A stretch of 46,496 nt of DNA from Escherichia phage SandraMuster_Bas78. The stretch lies in the sequence record PQ850625.1; one strand, 5' to 3'. A program made the position numbers and the translations under genes. The notes under the pieces were generated by a model that saw only the letters and a program-made list of their open reading frames with translations, did no database searches and was not told the origin of the DNA. Positions 21,515 to 24,496 of this stretch are shown in pieces. Position 1 is the stretch's first letter. Each line of letters opens with the position of its first letter.

Positions 21515-21978
21515 TGCCAGCGAAATTAAGAGGCATTCAGGAGGCAATTCGCAAAACTGAGCAGATAGCTGGCACTATCACGGCAGAAAAAGCGGTGAGA
21601 GCAATCAAAAGTGCCAACTATATTATTCGCACAGAAGCGGCAACAATAACGCCAATTGATACATCAAACCTTATCAATAGCCAATATGATACGGTGGAAG
21701 TGTCAGGGACGAGGATAACAGGAAAAATAGGATATTCTGCTGATTATGCTCTATATGTTCACCGCGCACCGGGGACACTAAAAGGAAAGCCACGCGCTCA
21801 TTTTGGCAAGACCAATAACCTTTCAGATTTTGGCCCGAAACAGGTTAAGGAATTTGGTGGCGGCTCGCTGACAGGTAACTACTGGGACCCAAATGCCGAG
21901 CCACAATTCCTGACCAAGGCGGCGCAGCGCACAAAAGACCTGGTTGATAGTGTGATTAAGAAGGAGATGAAACTGTGA
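21514..21978 (+). CDS. putative tail completion protein (HK97 gp10-like)
   Basis: Size, position and N-terminal helical region resemble HK97 gp10-family neck proteins; low-confidence similarity. Confidence 0.4.
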   Translation: MPAKLRGIQEAIRKTEQIAGTITAEKAVRAIKSANYIIRTEAATITPIDTSNLINSQYDTVEVSGTRITGKIGYSADYALYVHRAPGTLKGKPRAHFGKTNNLSDFGPKQVKEFGGGSLTGNYWDPNAEPQFLTKAAQRTKDLVDSVIKKEMKL

Positions 21979-22349
21979 ACATGCTTGAGCTGGTTGATGC
22001 ATATCTTCAGGATGCAGGATTGTATGATGGCTGGACTTCGCAGTTGCAGTTCTGGAACGACACCGGAGATGGCAACGAGCAATTTATTGTTCTGCAATCC
22101 AATGGTGGCACGCAGGTGATGGACGGCCTCGGCGGTGACTTCTATTTCTCGCTGTACGTTGTTGGGAAACAAGGCCAGTACAATGTTGCTGATGTCGACG
22201 CTAAAGCCAATGAGATTATCGAATACATCAAGACACATCCGATTGATTCATGCGTGAACTACATCCAGTTGCAGGCTCCTCTAGGACGACCAATGTTGAC
22301 GGAGGAGAAGCGCCCTGTGCATGAGTTGCTTTTGCGGGTTGTGAAATAA
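21975..22349 (+). CDS. putative tail terminator / neck protein
   Basis: Track ORF, last gene before ORF-poor region; synteny only. Confidence 0.35.
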   Translation: MNMLELVDAYLQDAGLYDGWTSQLQFWNDTGDGNEQFIVLQSNGGTQVMDGLGGDFYFSLYVVGKQGQYNVADVDAKANEIIEYIKTHPIDSCVNYIQLQAPLGRPMLTEEKRPVHELLLRVVK

Positions 22350-22352
22350 ATA

Positions 22353-22380
22353 AAGCCGCACGAAGCGGCCTTATTGCTGG
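22353..22380 (+). terminator. weak hairpin terminator
   Basis: AGCCGCACGAAGCGGCCTT followed by ATTGCTGGTTT. Confidence 0.3.
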
Positions 22381-23025
22381 TTTAAGCATTGCCAGCATGC
22401 TTTCTTAATATCCAGCCCCGTAACCCATACATACCCCTACATATGATTGCGATAATGCTGGATATTAAGTGTTGTGGTGGCCGGTGCTGATATCCGGCAT
22501 AAGGCGCTTATTCGGCGGCGTCGAGCTTGCTTATTCGCTTGAGCCATCCTCGTGAGTCAGCCACGTCCCACTGCGCATCAGCCTGCGCATTCACCACAAC
22601 GGAAATAGCACTGGATAACCAAGCGCGCAGACTCTTCACGATTATCTGCTCAATGCTCTTACCTGTTGTGTGCCACGTTTCGTGTGGCTTACGGCAACGA
22701 CATTACCGGATTATTCGCTGCACCCTTGATGGATTTACTAAGGCGACATGCCCGTTGTTACCCACGAATGAGAGCACTATAAGTTACGCTGCCTCGGACG
22801 TACCTACGCTGCCTGTTCTTAAATACTCTCATTGGTGGGTGCCCGTTATTAATCACAGCGGGCCACTGCGCCGAATTTGTTTACAAGGAGTCGGAAGACC
22901 TTGCTGACTTACAGGCTATTACGCCGCCATCAGAACAACATCATCGTTTGCATTTATCTTTGTGGTCAGTTTCTAAAAAGTCCGCAAAGTCGCTCACGAA
23001 AACTATCTGAAATACAATCTACACC

Positions 23026-23060
23026 ACAAAATAATCACTGTCAACACCTGTGATATAATC
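23026..23060 (+). promoter_or_regulatory. extended -10 promoter upstream of major tail gene
   Basis: AATCTACACCA ... TGTCAACACC ... TGATATAAT (TGnTATAAT); near-identical element at 24535..24586. Confidence 0.5.
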
Positions 23061-23095
23061 ATCGCGTTAGCAGCTAACACAATTCGGAGATCGAA

Positions 23096-23812
23096 ATGGC
23101 TATTTGTGCAAATGATAAGGGCGTTCTGGTTGGTCGCATGACCCGCCTGTTCCTTGCTGAAGGGTGCGGCGACGCAGTTCCGGATGCAGAAGACTGGAAA
23201 TATTTAGGCTCAACCACCAGTAAAGGTGTTGACTACTCGCCGCAGACCACCACGTCGGAAGCTGATACCACTGGCGGCTTTGTTTCCACTCTCGTTACCA
23301 GCTCTGATATGACCATCAGTGCAGAGGTTGAAATCCGCAAGAATGACCCGAGCGATGAGTTTGGCTTCCATCGTCTGGTTGAGATTTACGCCACTGAACT
23401 GAAGGCGCGTCGCCAGCCTTCCTTGTGGGTGCGTCAGGTTACTGGTGCAACTATCGTTACCGCGTACTGCAACATTACCAGCATCAGTTACGAAGGTGGT
23501 ACAAACGACATCGTTACTGGCAGCCTTGAGTTTAAGGTTTACGATTCTGACAGCGTTACCGTAGAGAGCCTTGAGCCTCTGGCATTCACTACAGACCTGC
23601 CATCAACTGGCACGGCTGGCAGCCCGTTAACTGTTGCTGTTGAAGGTGGTGTCGCTCCTTACACTTATGTATGGCGCAAAGATGGCGTGGTTGTCGGCAG
23701 CGAATCAGGCGCGTCTCTGGCAATCCCTACCGCTGGCGTGTATACCGTCACGGTGACTGATTCGTCTACTGACCCTGAAATTATTATCAGCACGGCTTGC
23801 ACTGTGTCCTGA
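23096..23812 (+). CDS. major tail protein with C-terminal Ig-like domain
   Basis: 238 aa ORF upstream of chaperone/tape measure; C-terminal segment (TGTAGSPLTVAVEGGVAPYTYVW...VYTVTVTD) looks like a Big_2-type Ig domain as on lambda gpV. Confidence 0.65.
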   Translation: MAICANDKGVLVGRMTRLFLAEGCGDAVPDAEDWKYLGSTTSKGVDYSPQTTTSEADTTGGFVSTLVTSSDMTISAEVEIRKNDPSDEFGFHRLVEIYATELKARRQPSLWVRQVTGATIVTAYCNITSISYEGGTNDIVTGSLEFKVYDSDSVTVESLEPLAFTTDLPSTGTAGSPLTVAVEGGVAPYTYVWRKDGVVVGSESGASLAIPTAGVYTVTVTDSSTDPEIIISTACTVS

Positions 23813-23815
23813 TAA

Positions 23816-23846
23816 ATAAAAAAGCCCCGGAAGGGGCTTTGTTTTA
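23816..23846. terminator. bidirectional terminator between convergent genes
   Basis: AAAAAAGCCCCGGAAGGGGCTTTGTTTTA. Confidence 0.6.
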
Positions 23847-24053
23847 TTCTTGCGGTGGCTCTGGTAGTGGCATCCAGTGTGTTACGTCATCCAAGATATT
23901 TCCTGATAAATACGTGAAAGCCCTATATTTTTTGTAATCAATTGGATTTACAACCCAGTTCCAATATGCGGCTACGATTTCACCTTGACTAAATACCAAT
24001 AACATTTGGGTTTCATCCGGCATCCTTTCACTGCACTTAATCCACTGTCTCAT
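23844..24053 (-). CDS. hypothetical protein
   Basis: Track ORF in minus-strand island within the tail cluster. Confidence 0.45.
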   Translation of the reverse strand: MRQWIKCSERMPDETQMLLVFSQGEIVAAYWNWVVNPIDYKKYRAFTYLSGNILDDVTHWMPLPEPPQE

Positions 24054-24193
24054 ATCACCTTATCCTCATCAAAAATCACACCAATCACACGAAGCAAGTC
24101 TTTCGCCATGCGTTCAGCTTCTTCATAGTCGTAACCCGCATCAACATACAAATCAGTGTAGAAAATCAGGTCAGCTTTTGTTTGTTCGTTCAT
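24050..24193 (-). CDS. hypothetical small acidic protein (47 aa)
   Basis: Minus-strand ATG; stop overlaps next start (ATGA); below track cutoff. Confidence 0.3.
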   Translation of the reverse strand: MNEQTKADLIFYTDLYVDAGYDYEEAERMAKDLLRVIGVIFDEDKVI

Positions 24194-24202
24194 GGGCAAG
24201 CC

Positions 24203-24496
24203 TTACATCCCTTGCTTTTCACACAAAGAAACAGCCACATCACGCAATTGCTCTTTGGTCATATCCTTGCGTGCATAAACCATTTCTACGATAGCAAGGC
24301 CGATTATTTCTGCTGCCTCGTTGTTTTTTGCCGAGCCTTTTACTACCACCTCTGCAAGGTTTTTACTGACGCCATTATCGCGAACTTCAGCCGTGTTTAA
24401 TGCGATGTCGCCAATATTCTTGCACACCTCTGAAGTTGCTACAGCAGAGAAAGAAGAAACCAATAGTGCAGACGCAATCAACATTTTAATTTTCAT
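24203..24496 (-). CDS. small secreted/periplasmic protein
   Basis: N-terminal signal peptide MKIKMLIASALLVSSFSAVA then 77 aa soluble region; RBS GAGGTGAG. Confidence 0.5.
   Translation of the reverse strand: MKIKMLIASALLVSSFSAVATSEVCKNIGDIALNTAEVRDNGVSKNLAEVVVKGSAKNNEAAEIIGLAIVEMVYARKDMTKEQLRDVAVSLCEKQGM

Follow-up and report, generated by a model that had tools for sequence, protein, structure and literature searches.

A gap in the tail gene cluster of Escherichia phage SandraMuster_Bas78 (PQ850625.1) probably holds a non-coding RNA operon of ~660 nt on the minus strand, with its own sigma-70 promoter and an intrinsic terminator, in which the 5′ module is a homologue of tmRNA that lacks the tRNA-like domain. 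The gap (746 bp, positions 22350–23095 of the window, meaning the whole stretch of 46,496 nucleotides that was analysed) lies between a neck/tail-completion gene (21975–22349, plus strand, phrog_782) and the major tail gene (23096–23812, plus strand, phrog_853). The gap is mosaic and rich in indels; close relatives gain and lose whole modules here.

A probable minus-strand transcription unit in the tail gene cluster

An earlier note on this DNA had seen no credible gene in the region, and this holds for the whole gap. On inspection its sole long open reading frame (ORF), at 22527–22907 on the plus strand (126 aa), indeed begins with TTG. Pfam gave no matches for this ORF or for five other gap ORFs on both strands, and the same six were without PHROG matches apart from one weak hit (phrog_26260, E = 0.005) on a 58-aa ORF antisense to the tag described below. 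The proposal of a decayed protein gene thus has nothing in its favour, and comparison with related genomes revealed no intact protein gene aligning with frameshifts.

The structural observations of the earlier note fared better. Both inverted repeats are real, pairing at 13 of 13 positions (22404–22416 with 22457–22469) and at 14 of 15 (22760–22774 with 22826–22840); they lie where they had been placed, except that the second arms were ~4 and 11 nt off, and the direct repeat TACGCTGCCT occurs at 22785 and 22805. The description as GC-rich is marginal, the G+C fraction being 0.487 at 22380–23020 against 0.464 in the whole window, with local maxima of 0.517. The region folds better than dinucleotide shuffles (only 20 per strand) on both strands, with z = −4.0 on the minus strand and z = −7.3 on the plus strand. 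The idea of a structured non-coding RNA has strong support, yet this RNA lies on the other strand than the genes around it and has a definite identity that the note had not seen. Its suggestion of an indel or recombination hot spot was right in that relatives differ by whole modules and inserted tRNA genes, whereas an intron remnant found no support, as no Rfam family, intron families included, reached its curated gathering score anywhere in the window.

A sigma-70-type promoter (23016–23044, minus strand) consists of TTGACA (23044–23039), a 17-nt spacer and TAGATT (23021–23016), matches the consensus at 10 of 12 positions in a promoter scan and is invariant in six relatives; transcription would start near position 23009. 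The copy of the element in phage Michonne is preceded by an equivalent promoter, TTGACA-17-TAAGAT. At the other end, an intrinsic terminator (22344–22369, minus strand) is formed by the G+C-rich hairpin GCCGC-UUCGU-GCGGC followed by the U-run UUUAUUUAUUU. The hairpin is usable in both directions and was scored on the plus strand by the terminator scan, but it is the minus strand that has the better U-run; in relatives the loop changes while the stem stays intact. Back to back with the minus-strand promoter lies a putative extended −10 element of the major tail gene, TGATATAAT (23051–23059, plus strand), which the promoter scan did not report because no −35 hexamer matches.

Several features of the sequence indicate that the minus strand is the RNA strand. 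Besides the promoter and the better U-run, these are real tRNA genes that relatives carry in the same gap and in the same orientation as the RNA unit, the GC skew, which goes negative across the gap and fits minus-strand genes, and the G-U pairs described below.

The tag RNA, its reading frame and its fold

The first part of the unit is a predicted ~170-nt RNA (22839–23011, minus strand), delimited by nhmmer matches and resembling the mRNA-like domain and pseudoknot ring of tmRNA without the tRNA-like domain; we refer to it as the tag RNA. It would begin directly after the promoter, ~6 nt before the first of two motifs conserved among copies (22982–23003, minus strand), GUUUUCG (23003–22997) and GCGACUUUGCGG (22993–22982). 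Both are similar to a stretch of Escherichia coli tmRNA close to its 5′ end, GGAUUCGAC..GAUUUGCG.

Downstream of these motifs lies the tag frame GCA AAC GAU GAU GUU GUU CUG AUG GCG GCG UAA (22919–22951, minus strand), encoding ANDDVVLMAA*, compared with ANDENYALAA for the E. coli SsrA tag. The frame has the properties of a tmRNA tag: it lacks a start codon, opens with an alanine resume codon and has a hydrophobic end followed by a stop. An in-frame UAG stands eight codons upstream of GCA, and no AUG, GUG or UUG occurs in frame between the two. The preceding AUAAAU places U at −5 and A at −4, a frame-setting context as in tmRNA. In tmRNA the equivalent U85 and A86 are highly conserved, and the role of A86 has been shown (PMC2481249).

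We compared 71 distinct copies of the element, which comprise 27 nucleotide versions and 19 peptides, all retaining the ten sense codons and the stop. None of the 71 copies departs from U(−5) and A(−4), positions −6 to −1 reading AUAAAU, GUAAAU, AUAAUC, AUAACU or AUAUCU. Variation falls mainly at third codon positions: positional entropies are 0, 0 and 0.38 in codon 1, 0, 0 and 0.73 in codon 2, and 0, 0 and 0.61 in codon 3, and codon 10 is GCG, GCC or GCU. This pattern argues strongly that the tag is conserved at the peptide level, with the qualification that codons 7 to 10 overlap the helix-5-like element, hence part of their conservation could be structural.

Covariation supports the predicted fold of the tag RNA. 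The helix-5-like element (22904–22933, minus strand) pairs CUGAU with GUCAG around the hairpin GGC-GUAAUA-GCC, in which the UAA stop of the tag frame sits in the loop; its helices 1 and 3 are paired in 90% and 83% of cells, with compensatory changes of CG to UA and GC to AU. It is followed, as is the equivalent hairpin in tmRNA, by pseudoknots, here two of the H-type. Pseudoknot A (22871–22903, minus strand) has stem S1 CAAGG/CCUUG and stem S2 formed by CCGA, in the loop, with UCGG (helices 4 and 5, 97% and 93% paired), with both-sided changes in seven of nine pairs. Pseudoknot B (22841–22870, minus strand) combines S1 CGCAG/CUGUG and S2 GCCC/GGGC with a conserved A/U-rich loop, AUUAAUAA, its helices 6 and 7 being paired in 96% and in 66% of cells, the latter value lowered by unequal stem lengths. 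A G-U pair of pseudoknot B is present in 22 of 24 sequences and would be A-C on the other strand, which identifies the minus strand as the RNA strand.

Over the helix-5-like element and the two pseudoknots, 87.3% of cells are paired, compared with 35–43% when the partners are slid, and 16 of 26 pairs show compensatory changes. The number of compensatory cells (78) was not reached in any of 500 shuffles (26.4 ± 4.7). A pairing like that of PK1, the pseudoknot that stands just before the resume codon in tmRNA, can be drawn (GUUUU/GAAAC with CUUUG/CAAAG), with covariation no higher than in shuffles.

Below the gathering scores, the Rfam matches point in the same direction. In the window, tmRNA_permuted (RF04321) scored 27.3 bits against a gathering score of 47, and beta_tmRNA (RF01850) 17.2 bits against 84; both match the tag here and, independently, in 13 other loci, and no other Rfam family scored higher for any copy tested. 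Together, the sequence comparisons provide firm grounds for regarding the tag region as homologous to tmRNA.

Downstream modules and the search for a tRNA domain

The remainder of the unit consists of five structured modules, C to G, which may be accessory structured RNAs or processing signals. Module C (22761–22839, minus strand) is a long hairpin, CCCACCAAUGAGAGUAUU...AGUGCUCUCAUUCGUGGG, that corresponds to the second inverted repeat, holds the TACGCUGCC direct repeat in its loop and has a stem paralogous to that of module D. It is present in Bas77, Bas79, Bas81 and Sashavirus-type phages and absent from St11Ph5, P1, ASO78B and STGO-35-1. Module D (22595–22670, minus strand) is likewise a long hairpin, CACAACAGGUAAGAGCAUUG ... 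CCAGUGCUAUUUCCGUUGUG, whose apical insert varies; many phages have the same stem at cassette boundaries, and in P1 it shows compensatory changes (GGGCGCUG/CAGCGUCC, as read from the sequence). The 3′ strand of module D overlaps the 5′ acceptor strand of module E.

Module E (22473–22598, minus strand) is a tRNA-like scaffold, as judged from its sequence and from compensatory changes in relatives. A 7-bp acceptor-like stem, UGUGGUG/CACCACA, is followed by AA, the D-arm reads GCGC-AGGCUGAU-GCGC, and a T-like arm, GCCGG-(9 nt)-CCGGC, abuts the 3′ acceptor strand and changes in compensatory fashion to GCUGG/CCAGC in Bas81 and GCAGG/CCUGC in locus L023. The position of the anticodon arm is taken by a hypervariable insert (74 nt here, 33–102 nt across copies). 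The module lacks CCA and has U3-A70 in place of G3-U70, and neither ARAGORN nor the Rfam tRNA model (RF00005) called it. On these sequence features we class it as tRNA-like and not as a tRNA, since it has acceptor-, D- and T-like elements and no anticodon arm. The copy in CECAV_048 has a canonical GGTTCGATTCC T loop, and that record annotates a 58-nt tRNA-Ser.

Module F (22404–22469, minus strand), the first inverted repeat, has a perfect 13-bp stem and a 40-nt G-rich loop (..GUAGGGGUAUGUAUGGGUUACGGG), is nearly invariant in six relatives and has a loop similar to a motif in St11Ph5, GGGGUAUGUAGGGGCUACG. The string GGGGCUG at its base (22420–22414, minus strand) is identical to the 7 nt with which E. 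coli ssrA starts; we regard this as coincidence, the string belonging to the hairpin and being without a CCA partner. Module G (22376–22401, minus strand), read by eye, is a candidate H-type pseudoknot, AGCAU-GCUGG-CA-AUGCU-UAAA-CCAGC, directly 3′ of which relatives insert tRNA-Ser(GCU), tRNA-Arg(UCU) or tRNA-Met(CAU).

Searches for the missing tRNA domain returned no convincing candidate. ARAGORN detected its control, E. coli ssrA, but no tmRNA in the window and none in the 137 sequences scanned, and Rfam scans by E-value of 14 related loci yielded only true tRNAs and matches to the tag. The T-loop pattern GGTTCRANTCC, with up to one mismatch, is absent from the gap. The sole T-like hairpin, that of module E, has a 9-nt loop in place of the canonical GGUUCGAAUCC type. 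Neither a tmRNA acceptor stem with G3-U70 and an (A)CCA end nor the union of acceptor stem and helix 2 that joins two-piece tmRNAs was found. Two tRNA-like RNAs next to other copies, one read by hand upstream of the ST-3 copy (GGGUGAU...AUCACUC-G-CCA) and one with G3-U70 downstream of the L071 copy, were set aside because one G-U among 17 candidates is the chance expectation and Rfam supported neither.

Direct pairing of the tag RNA with a partner was also rejected. A tether to the insert of module E was no better for cognate (−4.68) than for non-cognate pairs (−4.58), and a 16-nt match from the repeat search (I4) was at chance level. Pairing of GCGACUUUGCGG as an antisense to the resume-codon region of host tmRNA is absent in ST-3 and different in Michonne, and whole-RNA duplexes of the tag RNA with E. 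coli tmRNA have the same energies as shuffled controls (z from −1.6 to +1.5).

Distribution, possible roles and known systems

The tag element is spread across unrelated enterobacterial phages and is co-oriented with tRNA genes. It matches 533 phage records, including P1, lambdoid prophages, Ackermannviridae, Gamaleyavirus, Ounavirinae, Sashavirus, Skatevirus and others, and is kept in at least ten unrelated lineages at 70–99% identity. It also occurs, always unannotated, in 656 of 5426 complete E. coli genomes (~12%), and in only four of 185,579 species-representative genomes. Copies are always situated within or next to a tRNA island and never on the opposite strand only, or else, in lambdoid prophages, in the Q-to-holin late leader. 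No earlier description of the element was found in the literature searched, tmRNA database papers included.

How such an RNA might act can be outlined from its features. It would be made as part of a minus-strand precursor and may be cut out at the flanking hairpins or tRNA-like elements by RNase P, RNase III or RNase E. Its frame would be read by ribosomes rescued via the host SmpB-dependent trans-translation machinery, the alanyl-acceptor function coming from a separate RNA, either host tmRNA or a phage tRNA-like RNA, and stalled products in infected cells would gain a phage-specified degron, (A)ANDDVVLMAA. We put forward only tentatively this natural, untethered and split form of trans-translation, in which a free tmRNA template without a tRNA domain is loaded after rescue by a separate acceptor RNA and SmpB. 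To our knowledge, no natural or engineered untethered template works in trans-translation.

The complete absence of a tRNA-like domain would also suit a decoy, an untranslated tag RNA that titrates factors binding the mRNA-like part or the pseudoknots and so damps host trans-translation during infection; candidate targets are ribosomal protein S1, the SmpB tail, RNase R and possibly SspB-independent factors. Conservation of the pseudoknots and of the U(−5)A(−4) context, relevant to both S1 and SmpB, fits this role, which would mirror the tRNA-domain-only RNA of phage DS6A, a precedent for tmRNA inhibition (PMC4131195). We consider it rather unlikely, as a decoy needs neither a constant 10-codon frame nor a stop kept in 71 of 71 copies, and it leaves unneeded both the hydrophobic ..AA or ..VA end and the confinement of variation to third positions in the unpaired Ala, Asn and Asp codons. 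Alternatively the tag, hairpin D and module E could be one molecule, a complete but unconventional tmRNA in which a tRNA-like body is extended at its 5′ end by the template and is charged once its 3′ end has been processed and CCA added. Many unrelated loci have the same order of tag, hairpin and E, with E never upstream of the tag; E resembles the tRNA domain of tmRNA in its acceptor, D and T elements and in the replacement of the anticodon arm by an insert, and RNase P cleavage could be impeded where it overlaps the 3′ strand of D. On the other hand, E in the window has U3-A70, its T loop is 9 nt long and CCA is not encoded, E is missing from many loci with the tag (P1, Michonne, CBA120), and CECAV_048 has E and no tag, which together make a single molecule improbable.

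The mosaic, indel-rich gap invites the view that it is a recombination-prone dump for captured tmRNA and tRNA fragments, passively carried and non-functional. Module E resembles a damaged tRNA, as do several neighbours in other phages, and CECAV_048 has wholly lost the tag element while keeping module E. This too is improbable, given retention of the element across so many lineages at the identities above, its compensatory base-pair changes, a frame intact in 71 copies and a conserved promoter of its own in two unrelated contexts. Least of all do we expect small proteins encoded on the plus strand. The record of the closest relative, Bas79, lists three hypothetical coding sequences wholly within the gap, and automated annotation places coding sequences here in Bas77 and Bas81 too, to which the weak phrog_26260 match can be added. 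That match, being antisense to the conserved tag, is most simply explained as a family built from the same mis-called ORF. The 126-aa ORF, with its TTG start, had no Shine-Dalgarno sequence according to the earlier note, Pfam gave no matches, the ORFs annotated in Bas79 are not conserved, other relatives deleting or replacing those stretches, and most other records leave the region unannotated, so that a protein-coding role appears very improbable.

What defines tmRNA is that a tRNA part and an mRNA part are physically joined. A template that is conserved, widespread and apparently translated, and yet has no tRNA part, would, if true, mean either that the two functions are separable or that phages interfere with ribosome rescue in a new way; under split trans-translation, the phage would pick the degron for stalled host or phage proteins during infection. 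The finding would also give a name to an element that is conserved but unannotated in model phages (P1, CBA120, Felix O1 relatives, lambdoid and STEC prophages) and in ~12% of complete E. coli genomes, and would put right the spurious “hypothetical protein” calls made there. It further shows that phage tRNA islands contain tRNA-like RNAs, in families, which current tRNA and tmRNA finders miss.

Among known systems the closest is tmRNA itself (SsrA, 10Sa RNA, RF00023). Shared with it are a start-codon-less frame opening with a GCA or GCU alanine resume codon, an upstream U(−5)A(−4) equivalent to U85/A86 of E. coli, a tag of ten residues of the form AN(D/E)....(A/V)A, which comes near to ANDENYALAA, a helix-5-like hairpin with the stop in its loop, and H-type pseudoknots downstream, with an A/U-rich pseudoknot loop like the UUAAAACUUAAU stretch in the pseudoknot region of E. 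coli tmRNA. In contrast, the phage RNA is without acceptor stem, G3-U70, T arm, CCA end and helix 2, has two proven pseudoknots only, is ~170 nt long compared with ~360 nt, and is carried by phages and prophages and not as a single-copy chromosomal gene.

In two-piece tmRNAs, whose acceptor and coding pieces come from one precursor, the coding piece reportedly has the 5′ acceptor strand at its start, and acceptor stem and helix 2 keep it bound to the acceptor piece (Keiler, Shapiro and Williams 2000). As in these, the template of the tag RNA does not share a molecule with the 3′ acceptor end, and the Rfam models of such tmRNAs match its UAAAUGC ahead of the tag, the tag itself and the hairpin after it, but it has no flanking acceptor strands and no partner was found. 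Permuted forms of the tmRNA gene have been described (PMC11915505).

YrlA (RF02553), a group of Y-RNA-like RNAs of bacteria and phages that have a tRNA-like module, resembles module E and the mini tRNA-like units in carrying acceptor-, D- and T-like mimicry on a long stem; it is unmatched in the window region even at E = 10, and its only match in other loci (25.6 bits) overlaps two genuine tRNAs of P1. The unit also recalls phage tRNA islands such as that of T4, in which a single precursor holds co-oriented tRNAs and small structured RNAs and is processed by tRNA enzymes, with homing-endonuclease genes in the vicinity and a content that turns over fast, although ARAGORN found no canonical tRNA in the window itself. 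The T4 cluster includes species 1 and 2 RNAs, which are unassigned stable RNAs. Mycobacteriophage DS6A offers the nearest counterpart of a phage-borne half of a tmRNA. It encodes a tRNA-domain-only form, and strong inhibition of tmRNA is described for a molecule of this kind, perhaps through titration of SmpB (PMC4131195). DS6A carries the opposite half, a tRNA-like domain without a tag, whereas the element described here has a tag without a tRNA-like domain.

The stretch between the neck and major tail genes

The phage is a small siphovirus of the Skatevirus cluster, its nearest record being Escherichia phage SusanneMuster_Bas79 with 95% identity across the region (taxonomy of Bas77-81 in PMC11990801). 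The last neck gene (21975..22349, plus strand, phrog_782) and the major tail gene (23096..23812, plus strand, phrog_853) are 746 bp apart. The inverted repeats that the earlier note had seen in this gap were recovered at 22404-22416/22457-22469 (13/13) and 22760-22774/22826-22840 (14/15), together with two copies of its direct repeat, TACGCTGCCT, and folding was better than that of shuffles on both strands; the GC richness it described is marginal (0.487 versus 0.464). The ORF it had discounted, 22527..22907, does exist (TTG start, 126 aa); searched together with five more ORFs from both strands of the gap, it had no Pfam match, and nor did they. PHROGs gave no match for the six with one weak exception (E = 0.005), a 58-aa ORF at 22877-23053 (plus strand) matching phrog_26260, a family of unknown function, and this ORF is antisense to a conserved tmRNA-like RNA (the tag element, 23011-22839, minus strand). 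‘Hypothetical proteins’ annotated over this element in several other phages' records look like systematic mis-annotations. As explanations of the gap, plus-strand protein genes and junk DNA are both poorly supported.

A promoter scan placed TTGACA-17-TAGATT on the minus strand at 23044-23016, in a region unchanged in six relatives, and a minus-strand terminator hairpin followed by UUUAUUUAUUU lies at 22369-22344. GC skew goes negative across the gap, and the tRNAs that relatives carry there, tRNA-Ser(GCU) with tRNA-Arg(UCU) or tRNA-Met(CAU), are all on the minus strand, directly upstream of the terminator. Together, these features indicate that the gap is a tRNA-island slot which reads against the structural genes. 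A putative extended -10 for the major tail gene, TGATATAAT, lies at 23051-23059 (plus strand), and the gene seems to restart transcription past the bidirectional terminator at 22344-22369. The minus-strand promoter and this extended -10 overlap back to back in 23016-23059.

Downstream of the major tail gene, a low-GC block of small ORFs at 23844-24496 (minus strand, GC 0.40-0.43) forms a second reverse-oriented insert within the structural module; among the genes of its Bas79 counterpart is one labelled superinfection immunity protein (a moron). In the major tail protein (23096-23812, plus strand), the C-terminal third matches Hoc-like, Ig-like decoration domains (phrog_2973, phrog_4069).

A tmRNA-like ring with a tag frame

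An Rfam E-value scan of the minus strand gave two sub-threshold matches centred on AUAAAUGCAAACGAUGAUGUUGUUCUGAUGGCGGCGUAA, tmRNA_permuted (27.3 bits, E = 0.0019) and beta_tmRNA (17.2 bits); no family reached its curated score in the window. Read from GCA, this sequence encodes ANDDVVLMAA and then a stop, compared with ANDENYALAA in E. coli SsrA, the ribosome-rescue tmRNA. An in-frame start codon is absent, and eight codons upstream the frame is closed by UAG. The 71 distinct copies comprise 27 nucleotide versions and 19 peptides (including ANDDLMMVAA, ANDEQFLAVA, ANEEMYLAVA, ANDNTFLAVA and ANDSEMRMVA), all 71 with 10 sense codons followed by UAA/UAG, and indels are frequent in the element outside this frame. 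Codons 1-3, an unpaired stretch, change at the third position only, and codon 10 is GCG/GCC/GCU. Judged by sequence comparison, the tag is demonstrably under coding-type constraint. In the SsrA tag, SspB and ClpX use the N-terminal A-N-D and the C-terminal ..AA/..VA. Upstream of the tag, U at -5 and A at -4 are unchanged in the 71 copies and are the counterparts of E. coli tmRNA U85 and A86, both highly conserved and the latter essential (PMC2481249).

The structure was derived from an alignment of 24 diverse copies, for which RNAalifold recovered the fold in part. Pairing was counted in all 24 on a hand-curated structure consisting of helix 5, whose loop contains the stop codon, and two pseudoknots, A (CAAGG/CCUUG plus CCGA/UCGG) and B (CGCAG/CUGUG plus GCCC/GGGC), the latter having the conserved loop AUUAAUAA. 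Paired cells reached 87.3%, versus 35-43% with partners slid by 1-3 columns, both-sided changes occurred in 16/26 pairs, and 78 compensatory cells were observed versus 26.4 +/- 4.7 in shuffled data, with 0/500 shuffles reaching 78. A G-U pair in 22/24 sequences identifies the minus strand as the RNA strand. A pairing like PK1, the tmRNA pseudoknot before the resume codon, can be drawn upstream of that codon and showed no covariation.

The element has no acceptor stem, T arm or CCA, and the T-loop consensus was not found in the gap; ARAGORN, which detected the E. coli ssrA control, called no tmRNA in the window or 137 scanned sequences. In the window and in phage Michonne, conserved sequence starts a few nucleotides past the -10 hexamer, so near that a 5′ acceptor strand could not fit. 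The tag element is a tmRNA ring, made up of the mRNA-like domain, helix 5 and two pseudoknots, that lacks helix 2 and the tRNA-like domain. Taken strictly, it does not qualify as a member of the tmRNA family, while it is clearly homologous to the central part of tmRNA.

Phage distribution and accompanying RNA modules

A 161-nt query around the tag sequence matched 533 phage records from unrelated groups, including P1, Ackermannviridae (CBA120, Vi01, Kevin), Gamaleyavirus (St11Ph5, IME11), Pylasvirus, Ounavirinae (Michonne, ST-3), Sashavirus, Chaseviridae (Faunus), Drexlerviridae (ESP2949-1) and 46-48 kb Klebsiella phages, almost always in unannotated stretches. Among complete E. coli genomes 656/5426 carry it, with 554 placements on plasmids, taken to be mostly P1-like, and 150 on chromosomes; PGAP annotates no RNA at these copies, and now and then a hypothetical protein. 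Only 4 of 185,579 species-representative genomes possess it, hence the element belongs to mobile phage DNA rather than host chromosomes.

Every copy sits in one of three settings: an island of co-oriented tRNAs, the Q-to-holin late leader of lambdoid prophages, or a dedicated promoter, as in the window. The P1 copy is flanked on one side by the P1ban promoter and its “dicF-like region” and on the other by tRNA-Asn/Thr, the Michonne copy has tRNA-Ile on one side, tRNA-Arg on the other and its own promoter (TTGACA-17-TAAGAT), and those of CBA120 and St11Ph5 sit in similar tRNA islands. A same-strand tRNA occurs within 1.5 kb of 44/83 copies, and tRNAs on the opposite strand only at 0/83. In P1 (68791-68892; 2585-2686 of locus L004) the element begins directly past the terminator of the dicF-like region, inside the C1-controlled ban operon leader, which would thus carry at least two small RNAs ahead of the tRNAs. 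In Serratia phage Kevin, a 90-nt ‘tRNA-Cys’ annotated upstream of the element (L133 932-1019) is enlarged by a long insertion around the anticodon arm and scores 44.8 bits with the Rfam tRNA model.

From comparison with relatives and other loci, the predicted minus-strand transcript 3′ of the tag RNA divides into separable modules, labelled C-G. Modules C (22839-22761) and D (22670-22595) both form long hairpins whose tips vary and whose stems are paralogous (consensus CACAACAGGUAAGAGCAUUG / CAGUGCUCUUUCCGUUGUG); these stems also flank cassettes in many phages, and in some loci (L046) a mini tRNA-like unit bearing a canonical T arm has its acceptor stem lengthened by them. At the apex of hairpin D, the insert CAGAUAAUCGUGAAGAGUCUGCGCGC (22615-22650, minus strand) resembles the tag RNA 5′ leader, CAGAUAGUUUUCGUGAGCGACUUUGCGG, as though the stem had once enclosed a tag element, since deleted. 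Module E (22598-22473) is a tRNA-like scaffold with acceptor UGUGGUG/CACCACA, AA, D-arm GCGC-AGGCUGAU-GCGC and a T-like arm adjoining the 3′ acceptor strand; ~26 nt at its 5′ and 3′ ends are kept in 16 distinct copies, and its interior, at the anticodon-arm position, is hypervariable (33-102 nt). In CECAV_048, where module E has a canonical T loop and is annotated as a 58-nt “tRNA-Ser”, the tag element is gone and modules D to G are retained, so the modules are independent. Module F (22469-22404), the perfect 13-bp hairpin of the first inverted repeat, has a 40-nt loop with G tracts (GGGG..GGG..GGGG), and module G (22401-22376) is a candidate pseudoknot; both are almost unchanged among relatives. 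Across loci, the elements most often run in the order hairpin-tag-hairpin-E. The 3′ arm of hairpin F opens with GGGGCUG, the same 7 nt with which E. coli ssrA starts; a UAUGUAGGGG unit is doubled in DS8, and the St11Ph5 RNA island contains GGGGUAUGUAGGGGCUACG.

RNA islands of CBA120, St11Ph5, ST-3 and others also contain tRNA-like RNAs that have an acceptor stem, a T arm and a CCA encoded in the DNA, in which a hairpin or 60-150 nt insert replaces the D and anticodon arms (all minus strand; L005 ~2440-2350 and ~2880-2765, L006 ~2300-2230 and 2240-2100, L132 ~1040-860, L071). ARAGORN and Rfam missed them. In the CBA120 unit that directly follows the tag element, G3-A70 is mismatched, and one L071 RNA has G3-U70.

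Possible use of the tag RNA and comparison with known tmRNAs

With the identity, structure, strand and distribution of the tag RNA established, the most economical reading of these sequences is that it would serve in SmpB-dependent trans-translation while a different RNA provides the acceptor function, because the tag has no start codon and the frame-setting context of tmRNA is kept. The flanking hairpins and tRNA-like units would mark where the tag RNA is cut out of its precursor, and the tag frame would be translated. As acceptor partner, module E is without alanine identity, and no cognate complementarity was found between the tag RNA and the module E insert, nor any with host tmRNA. The main rival is that the tag RNA may act as a decoy titrating factors that bind the tmRNA ring. 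This would account for the absent tRNA domain and would mirror the tRNA-domain-only RNA of mycobacteriophage DS6A (PMC4131195), but leaves the peptide-level conservation of the tag unexplained.

Full-text literature searches found no tag-bearing, tRNA-domain-less element of enterobacterial phages; a passing mention in the P1 genome paper is possible. Phage tmRNAs were listed in 2014 only from mycobacteriophages, including DS6A, and Bacillus phage G (PMC4131195), and the 2025 database update holds 79 unique bacteriophage sequences (PMC11915505). The tag element, which resides in well-studied phages, bears on the defining architecture of tmRNA.
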